Shown here one piece after another: positions 54,441 to 54,773 of a DNA stretch of 64,000 nucleotides (the stretch's first letter is position 1; each line of letters starts with the position of its first letter). Origin of the DNA: an uncultured Gemmatimonadales bacterium (lineage in GTDB: Bacteria > Gemmatimonadota > Gemmatimonadetes > Longimicrobiales > RSA9); the NCBI GenBank assembly GCA_963708135.1, contig OY970192.1, positions 5,312,001 to 5,376,000 on the forward strand, given 5' to 3'. The notes under the pieces were generated by a model. It was not told the DNA's origin. It ran no database searches and saw nothing but the letters and a program-made list of their open reading frames with translations. A program made the translations under genes and the position numbers.

Positions 54441-54739
54441 GCAGATGCAAGAACCCCCGGCAGCCGGACAAGTCCGATTACCGGGGGTCCCTGTAACTGG
54501 CGAGAGCCGAGGTCCGCTGGGTTCGGTACCACGTCTTGCGACGCGCCCGGAACCTCCTCTCTCTTCTCCTTGCCACGCGGCCCGTGGCTCGGGTGCCCCT
54601 TGGCCTGGGGCGTCGGCTGCGGCCAGTCGCCTCGCAGTCGGCTCACCGTGTTCCGAACCGCCGGTGAGCGGCCTCCGGAAAGCGTCCCTTTCGGAGGCGA
54701 CGTCCTCGGGCGGTAGGCCGCCCGCCCGCTGACGTCTGC
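54441..54739 (-). ncRNA. Candidate ~300-nt structured non-coding RNA (family unassigned)
   Basis: Sigma70-like promoter just upstream, about seven consecutive hairpins, GCAA tetraloop, terminal hairpin, complementary 5'/3' ends. Confidence 0.55.
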
Positions 54740-54744
54740 GAACA

Positions 54745-54773
54745 ATGATAATCCCACCTCCGCCCTCGGTCAA
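54745..54773 (-). promoter_or_regulatory. Sigma70-type promoter
   Basis: TTGACC-17 nt-TATCAT on the minus strand. Confidence 0.7.

Follow-up and report, generated by a model that had tools for sequence, protein, structure and literature searches.

A stretch of 64,000 nucleotides (nt) from the genome of an uncultured Gemmatimonadales bacterium (GenBank assembly GCA_963708135.1, contig OY970192.1, positions 5,312,001 to 5,376,000), hereafter the window, carries on its minus strand a region of ~293 nt (54446..54738) that is very probably a real gene for a structured RNA of a new family. The source genome is a single contig of 5.45 Mb with 72% G+C and a completeness of 97.65%, and the Gemmatimonadota to which it belongs are a common, little-studied soil phylum. 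A first-pass annotation made from the sequence alone had suggested a novel structured non-coding RNA of ~300 nt with its own promoter at this place. The conserved, covarying relatives described below and the lack of a match in Rfam 15 bear this suggestion out.

Results

Promoter and predicted limits of the RNA gene

A promoter scan placed a sigma-70-type promoter, TTGACC-17 nt-TATCAT, at 54745..54773 on the minus strand, exactly where the first-pass annotation had put it. It matches the consensus at 10 of 12 positions and is the sole sigma-70 site in 54300..55000, where shuffled sequences averaged 0.1 sites (n = 50). The letters CTTGAC and TATC recur at the same spacing in a paralog of 75% identity and in other genomes. 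We placed the 5′ end of the RNA 7 nt past the -10 box and its 3′ end after the last hairpin, P8, and the tail UUCUUGCAU. P8/P8b together with this tail is presumed to be an intrinsic terminator, and U-rich tails such as TTTCTTTTTTTTT follow P8 in relatives. Long reading frames cross the region, as they do everywhere in this G+C-rich genome. A coding reading is ruled out because the 75%-identical paralog differs from the window copy by gaps of one and two bases within the RNA and by paired changes in the stems, in agreement with the first call that no credible open reading frame is present.

Read on the minus strand, the RNA has a folding energy of -170 kcal/mol (z = -5.36) and none of 100 shuffled sequences was equally stable; the fold of the plus strand is less exceptional (z = -3.41). 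The RNAalifold consensus of 16 sequences from eleven genomes contained 52 pairs, 32 of them with compensatory changes. From these 16 sequences, the window copy included, we built a covariance model (R1) and aligned 105 members to it. The 88 proposed pairs are paired in 87.9% of cases in this alignment, compared to 40.5-43.3% when the partners are slid by 1-3 columns, and changes on both sides occur at 82 of the 88 pairs (37-44 when slid). The same sliding lowers the covariation score from 0.446 to 0.053-0.071, and in 500 shuffles no observed value was reached. The window copy itself aligns with R1 over 54441..54741 (model positions 1-300) with P1-P8 and three long-range pairings present, at a score of 261.4 bits that is partly given by construction. 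On the strength of this covariation and of the gaps of one or two bases we exclude both a chance fold and a coding region. Homologs and covariation had been named at the outset as a check on the RNA, and both were found.

Eight hairpins

All hairpins are given on the minus strand, and pairing values refer to the 105-member alignment. The first, P1/P1b (54699..54736; GACGTC/GACGTC with GGGCG/CGCCC), exposes the loop GCGGCC at 54721..54716; P1 is 86.5% paired and all six of its pairs show both-sided changes. In P2/P2b (54671..54698; CCTCCG..AAGG/CTTT..CGGAGG) every pair covaries, with 88.4% pairing in P2 and 93.0% in P2b, and the GGGACG loop region is near-invariant, G and A being conserved at 90% or more among 88 sequences. 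P3 (54641..54669; GCTCACCGG/ACGGTGAGC) has the loop GUUCGG at 54658..54653 and is paired at 92.3% over its outer six pairs and at 73.9% over the inner three. The most conserved hairpin is P4 (54614..54640; CGACUGCG / CGCAGCCG; loop GACUGGC at 54628..54622), with 95.8% pairing and covariation in 8 of 8 pairs. It is followed by P5 (54595..54611; GCCCC/GGGGC), supported by covariation, which is 77.9% paired and changes on both sides in four of five pairs.

P6a/P6 (54567..54593; P6 = GCCAC/GTGGC) carries the loop GGCCGC at 54582..54577 and is flanked by G-A/A-G positions; P6 is 92.4% paired with covariation at 5/5 pairs and P6a is 87.4% paired. A conserved purine-rich joining strand, AAGGAGAAGAGAGAGGAGGU, occupies 54552..54571, and a GAGGGRAAGAG-like stretch of this kind is present across all lineages. 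The sequence of P7 (54530..54545; CGCGUC-GCAA-GACGUG) is variable and covaries at 6/6 pairs with 85.8-88.7% pairing. The terminal hairpin P8/P8b (54450..54491; stem GGGACCCCCGGT/GCCGGGGGTTCT, then UUCUUGCAU) also covaries; its inner eight pairs are 97.4% paired and all eight covary.

The hairpins listed in the first-pass annotation are thus all present and conserved with compensatory changes, apart from GAGGT/ACCTC around P7. Assessed as an outer helix only, this element is partly supported: the 3′ part of the purine-rich strand and a CUCUC strand before pseudoknot 1 (see below) are 5/5 complementary in 93 of 100 members where 51.5 are expected. This moderate support suggests that the two strands may pair. 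The list was incomplete, as it lacked P4 and all three long-range pairings. The closing pair proposed between the 5′ GCAGA and the 3′ TCTGC turned out to be particular to the window copy, since the ends pair in full (5/5) in no more members than shuffled tails predict (12 of 98 observed, 12.0 expected).

Three long-range pairings

The first long-range pairing is a kissing loop between L1 (GCGGCC, 54721..54716) and L6 (GGCCGC, 54582..54577), with the consensus GCGGYC/GRCCGC. This helix is 89.9% paired; one of its pairs is GC in 62 and AU in 14 members and another is UA in 42 and CG in 28. In pseudoknot 1, L4 (GACUGGC, 54628..54622) pairs with GCCAGUU (54501..54495), the strand just 5′ of P8 (consensus RCUGG(C)/(G)CCAGY). 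Its six core pairs are 96.2% paired, one of them being GC in 57 and AU in 37 members, and one relative has GCCGG/CCGGC instead. Both pairings were detected in the average-product-corrected mutual information of 297 match columns and in a scan for conserved antiparallel runs. Pseudoknot 2 joins L3 (GUUCGG, 54658..54653) to a CCGAAC strand after P7 (within 54527..54520). Of 99 distinct members, 83 have a perfect 6/6 complement, where shuffled targets would give 25.9, and matched variants include UUCGAC/GUCGAA, CUUGGA/UCCAAG and UUUGGC/GCCAAA. None of the three pairings was imposed by the covariance model used for the alignment, yet all of them covary.

Distribution of the family

R1 matches 59 of the 73 genomes of the bacterium's own family (36 of 44 good-quality genomes; 32 of 37 genera) with one to six matches each, often in tandem. 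In an even sample of 151 genomes from the phylum it matches 21: the own family (f1) 1/1, f2 9/16, f5 9/31 and f4 1/71, with no match in the 31 sampled genomes of f3 and f6-f12. Outside the own family there is almost always one copy per genome in this sample. A broader core model (R2) found 1 of 41 genomes in f4, with a marginal score (E = 0.0044, 25.9 bits). We also scanned named genomes with a degenerate pattern; among the matches listed, R1 confirmed 16 of the 80 loci fetched and the other 64 were chance matches. The 16 confirmed loci are all labelled Gemmatimonadota, Gemmatimonadetes, Gemmatimonadales, Gemmatimonadaceae or Longimicrobiales (again among the matches listed), and we therefore use the phylum name for the RNA family. 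As far as searched, the family appears restricted to one class of Gemmatimonadota. A quick midpoint-rooted tree, read without support values, separates the clades A (with the window copy), B, f2 and f5; the clade labels are our own. The patchy distribution argues that the RNA is not an essential housekeeping RNA.

Five copies and their neighbours

R1 finds five copies of the RNA in the bacterium's own genome (coordinates with the prefix C1 below). BLAST against this genome added two copies to that of the window. The second is 110 kb distant; the third (C1:4171169-4171476) has 75% identity, and in it the homology begins and ends at the predicted RNA ends. The second copy is 100% identical across the RNA, whereas its upstream flank (176 nt) shares 95.5% and its downstream repeats share 84-94%; we count this contrast between RNA and flanks as a sign of selection on the RNA. 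The copies lie in different surroundings. c2 is located between an amidohydrolase gene and a gene for a lipocalin-like protein, both on the opposite strand, c3 sits within a 2-oxoacid dehydrogenase operon, antisense to it, with E2 on one side and lpd (E3) on the other, c4 ends ~50 nt before an operon for an ABC (ATP-binding cassette) ATPase and an FtsX permease, and c5 is found between lipB and the convergent rnhA. At 27 loci from many genomes, 16 of the next genes downstream converge on the RNA and 11 run in its direction; they belong to many unrelated Pfam families. As neighbours and orientations differ among the copies, the RNA is not a leader of a downstream gene.

The window copy is separated from its next gene by ~640 nt that span a terminator-like hairpin and dispersed repeats. 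That gene (52784-53830, minus strand) encodes a product of ~340 residues whose N-terminus is hydrophobic and rich in Cys; Pfam gives no match for it. Divergent from the RNA are genes for a PadR-family regulator and then an MacB/FtsX-type permease (55278-58444, plus strand), and a PadR gene (L035, 750-1364) is likewise divergent from the first RNA of a tandem array in another genome (G012). Two of the five copies adjoin 2-oxoacid dehydrogenase genes (C1:4167667-4173285 and C1:1433974-1439641, the latter after E2 and lipB). The RNA also stands beside lipB at two f2 loci (L065 and L073) and beside other genes in f5. That genes of 2-oxoacid dehydrogenase and lipoylation lie nearby may reflect chance or shared descent of the gene order.

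The c5-type copy looks ancestral. It is convergent with rnhA here and in five f2 genomes, with a gap of ~40-120 nt in four. The RNase HI encoded next to c5 (C1:1437832-1438419, minus strand) has, like its relatives in this class, a conserved C-terminal tail of ~40 residues (…WLE.ERE…Y.EF.E…). With this query RNase HI was matched in 131 of the 151 genomes of the phylum sample, most alignments reaching into the tail, and in none of f9-f12. A functional link between the RNA and rnhA was rejected, as the tailed enzyme is present in 71 of 71 f4 genomes, where the RNA is nearly absent; the shared neighbourhood is inherited gene order and not co-occurrence.

Two promoter classes and the flanking DNA

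The upstream regions of the copies fall into classes. In A-type promoters, those of the window copy and its close relatives, CTTGAC-17-TATC is preceded by a moderately conserved 'gtaa...gttg...tT' in the anchored consensus. In the window this element reads GTAAAC ... N ... GTTAC (54791..54820, minus strand) and lies ~20 nt upstream of the -35 box. Loose GTAAC/GTTAC half-sites occur in 24 of 55 A-type and in 0 of 23 B-type promoters, and the element might bind a regulator. The B-type is found in 23 of 100 upstream regions, those of c4 and c5 among them, and is defined by the sharply conserved CCGAA-N5-CCGAAAGACTTG, present in this genome at C1:1437434 and C1:2166009. The last twelve letters of this motif, CCGAARGMCTTG, occur five times in the genome against 2.3 expected; two of these sites precede RNA copies and the other three, judged by eye, are apparently inside genes. 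A dedicated activator or an alternative sigma factor may act at this motif. Two promoter architectures among paralogs suggest that different signals switch on different copies, and hence a regulatory role.

Several features of the flanking DNA were noted as well. Between the RNA promoter and the PadR gene, an A+T-rich island (54880-55000; G+C 0.48-0.51) contains repeated TGTGGA/TGTGAA-like words. Directly 3′ of the RNA, at 54150-54430, lies a 142-nt tandem repeat in 2.0 copies with 90% matches, which is also found beside the second copy. Its core of ~57 nt recurs at 10 or more other places of the genome with 83-97% identity, as expected of a dispersed element resembling repetitive extragenic palindromes (REP) or miniature inverted-repeat transposable elements (MITE). 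The repeat was therefore dismissed as a part of the RNA system, its core being dispersed genome-wide and not RNA-specific. Many relatives have short, mutually unrelated tandem repeats (units of ~5-16 nt) within ~130 nt after the RNA, for instance GGACAATCC x4, CAGAGA x5 and CCCTGG x3; such loci include L043, L049, L052, L062, L218, L220, L227 and L234.

Comparison with known RNAs

The family and its fold are new and match no Rfam family. Rfam 15 (4227 models, each with its own gathering threshold) returned only a tRNA at 46427-46500 when the whole window was searched at the gathering score, and gave no match in 15 homologous loci with diverse members. The novelty claimed at the start, which a search of Rfam could have removed, therefore stands. 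When the cut-off was relaxed to an expectation value (E) of up to 10, the segment 54100..55100 produced eight weak matches far below threshold, none of them with a meaningful overlap on the RNA strand. RNase P RNA (C1:3382505-3382908, 257.7 bits) and transfer-messenger RNA (tmRNA; C1:1854512-1854879, 166 bits) of this genome lie outside the window, as does the sole candidate for the signal recognition particle (SRP) RNA (C1:953877-953973), which covers the full model length with 32.9 bits and remains below the Rfam cut-off of 40. The identities SRP RNA, RNase P RNA and tmRNA were accordingly rejected.

A loose resemblance to the ydaO-yuaA riboswitch had also been proposed. Both RNAs exceed 100 nt, fold with pseudoknots and occur in bacteria of high G+C content. 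The new RNA differs in layout, ends in its own terminator hairpin and has convergent neighbours in most loci with no consistent downstream gene set, and ydaO-yuaA gave no match at E up to 10, so that this identity was rejected. In the literature we found nothing on this RNA, nor on 6S or structured RNAs in Gemmatimonadota; one preprint on the mining of non-coding RNAs does not name Gemmatimonadota in its main text, as far as a term search of that text goes.

The closest parallels are structured orphan RNAs, among them OLE, ROOL, GOLLD and the raiA motif RNA (ModT). Like the new RNA, these are stand-alone, lineage-restricted RNAs of a few hundred nt with a covarying pseudoknotted fold, and they are not known to have coding potential or an obvious cis target; we draw the comparison as an analogy and not as membership. 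The new RNA has no Rfam 15 match to any of them and differs in its host phylum, Gemmatimonadota, in reaching up to six copies per genome, in its two promoter classes and in a layout of eight hairpins, one kissing loop and two pseudoknots.

Discussion

Nearly every conserved nucleotide of this RNA serves the fold, and for this reason it most likely works through its shape. The analysis shows a stand-alone gene with its own sigma-70-type promoter, one of five paralogs and a member of the A-type branch of the family, whose eight hairpins are locked into a compact body by the contacts of L1 with L6, of L4 with the strand before P8 and of L3 with the CCGAAC strand. It would give a discrete transcript of ~293 nt ending at P8, and the RNA would act in trans through its three-dimensional shape. 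Our leading guess, which we hold tentatively and draw by analogy with other compact stand-alone RNAs, is that it may serve as the specific partner of a protein, either as a scaffold or as a decoy.

Some points weigh against this picture. No result points to a particular partner or target, and the protein-binding step comes from analogy. The transcript, its ends and its abundance are inferred; among the sequencing runs listed for window positions 54200-55000, all are of DNA (from soil and mangrove metagenomes) and none is of RNA. In the window copy a strict terminator scan calls no site, T making up only 4 of 8 letters in the tail TTCTTGCA, for which reason the 3′ end was deduced from the conserved P8 and the U-rich tails of relatives. 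The 105-member alignment was fitted to the model secondary structure, which inflates the counts for P1-P8 and leaves those for the tertiary pairings unaffected. Many aligned rows are close kin or paralogs, so that the shuffle controls overstate significance, and the script tests are simple. Lastly the family is patchy: it was not found in 14 of the 73 own-family genomes, and the hits in f4 are 1/71 with R1 and the marginal 1/41 with R2.

Among the other explanations, a trans-acting sensor or a catalytic RNA without a dedicated downstream gene fares best, although we regard it as unlikely. The new RNA combines three tertiary pairings with near-invariant loops and joining strands, and architecture of this level is typical of riboswitch aptamers and ribozymes. 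Its conservation, which is almost all structural, would leave room for an internal pocket. We found, however, no ligand, no cleavage site and no association with metabolic genes, and the neighbours are heterogeneous.

Somewhat less probable is a functional stand-in for 6S RNA (or an Ms1-like RNA), that is, an abundant RNA bound to RNA polymerase that would adjust transcription across the genome. The size is near that of Ms1, the gene stands alone with a strong-looking promoter and has several paralogs, and it occurs in lineages in which 6S was not detected. Indeed the 6S model (RF00013) had no match in the own genome (E <= 0.001) and none in the 119 sampled genomes of f1, f2, f4 and f5, while the new RNA is confined to f1, f2 and f5 apart from one f4 genome. 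In the same phylum sample 6S was matched in 11 of 151 genomes (f10 4/13, f11 3/3, f12 3/3 and, weakly, f3 1/2). This complementarity is incomplete, as f4, the largest family, lacks both 6S and, nearly, the new RNA, even with R2, and the 6S model is insensitive, matching only 4-5 of 14 control genomes. By definition 6S and Ms1 RNAs pair their 5′ and 3′ ends in the closing stem of a long, mostly double-stranded rod with a central bubble. The new RNA is instead a multi-branch globule whose two ends do not pair with each other (the 12 of 98 members mentioned above) and it is patchy, whereas 6S is near-universal. Nor did 54100..55100 contain any 6S-like match at E up to 10. The Rfam 15 scans of the window, of this segment and of the 15 loci gave no match named Ms1, in a library not confirmed to include an Ms1 model. 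The loose resemblance to Ms1-type RNAs noted in the first-pass annotation is not supported by the fold.

On a par with the 6S stand-in we place a cis-acting element, in which the fold would regulate the P8 terminator and read-through would control the downstream gene or produce an antisense RNA to a convergent gene such as rnhA or E2. The 3′ strand of pseudoknot 1 ends 2 nt before P8, 11 of the 27 loci have a downstream gene in the same orientation, c4 lies close before its operon, and rnhA converges on the c5-type copy both here and in five f2 genomes. Against it, the downstream genes are of many unrelated families and are convergent at 16 loci, the window copy has a gap of ~640 nt, no alternative anti-terminator pairing was seen, and rnhA with its tail is common where the RNA is not (131 of 151 genomes; 71 of 71 in f4). 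A cis-regulatory leader, which would call for co-directional genes that form a coherent set, was rejected in view of these unrelated Pfam families and of the convergent neighbours of c2, c3 and c5.

A base-pairing small RNA, in which a conserved single strand such as the purine-rich one would be the seed for messenger RNAs, is doubtful to a slightly greater degree. It would agree with a stand-alone gene with promoter and terminator hairpin, with a conserved unpaired purine-rich strand and with paralogs under different promoters, as in some small RNA families known from the literature. In this respect the new RNA resembles CsrB/CsrC, RsmX/Y/Z and Qrr1-5, families in which a genome likewise has several paralogs, at times in tandem, that differ in promoter architecture. 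Yet an RNA of ~290 nt held by three tertiary contacts greatly exceeds known seed-type small RNAs in complexity, its conserved tertiary structure is also much more complex than that of the multi-copy families just named, and the purine-rich strand may itself pair within the RNA.

We consider it very improbable that the locus is the RNA of a mobile element (an omega RNA, a bridge RNA or a retron RNA), or else a chance fold or a coding region. The copies are multiple, sometimes in tandem, and one pair is 99-100% identical, as a mobile element might be. No transposase, TnpB/IscB, IS110 or reverse-transcriptase domain, however, was present in 76 open reading frames scanned in flanks of ~1.5 kb, the RNA has no variable guide-like segment at either end, both of its ends are conserved helices, and the family is kept at syntenic places across bacterial families. 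Least probable of all is a sponge for CsrA of the CsrB/RsmZ type, suggested by several GGA motifs (in the GGGACG loop, the UUCGGA loop and the purine-rich linker) and by the palindromic GTAAC..GTTAC element upstream of A-type promoters, which recalls a GacA box; this candidate was dropped because csrA was not found (PF02599 has no match in this 97.65%-complete, single-contig genome and matches control genomes), and the GGA-bearing loops are engaged in tertiary pairings.

We thus retain the compact trans-acting RNA, possibly the partner of a protein, as our preferred reading. Stand-alone bacterial RNAs with so much conserved tertiary structure are rare. Where the role of such an RNA has become known, it was that of a ribozyme, a riboswitch-like sensor, a guide RNA or the core of a ribonucleoprotein. 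The pattern of occurrence is unusual, with a single copy in two families and one to six copies under two promoter types in a third. A more speculative thought, to which we give only a small chance though a somewhat better one than to any single alternative above, is that the RNA represents a new class of large tertiary-structured RNA (a ribozyme, a metabolite sensor acting in trans or the core of an undescribed ribonucleoprotein) that may have taken over the global role of 6S in the class Gemmatimonadetes, in which 6S was not detected, and then multiplied into differently regulated paralogs in one family. The alignment, the covariance model and the map of secondary and tertiary structure now make the question of its function directly testable.

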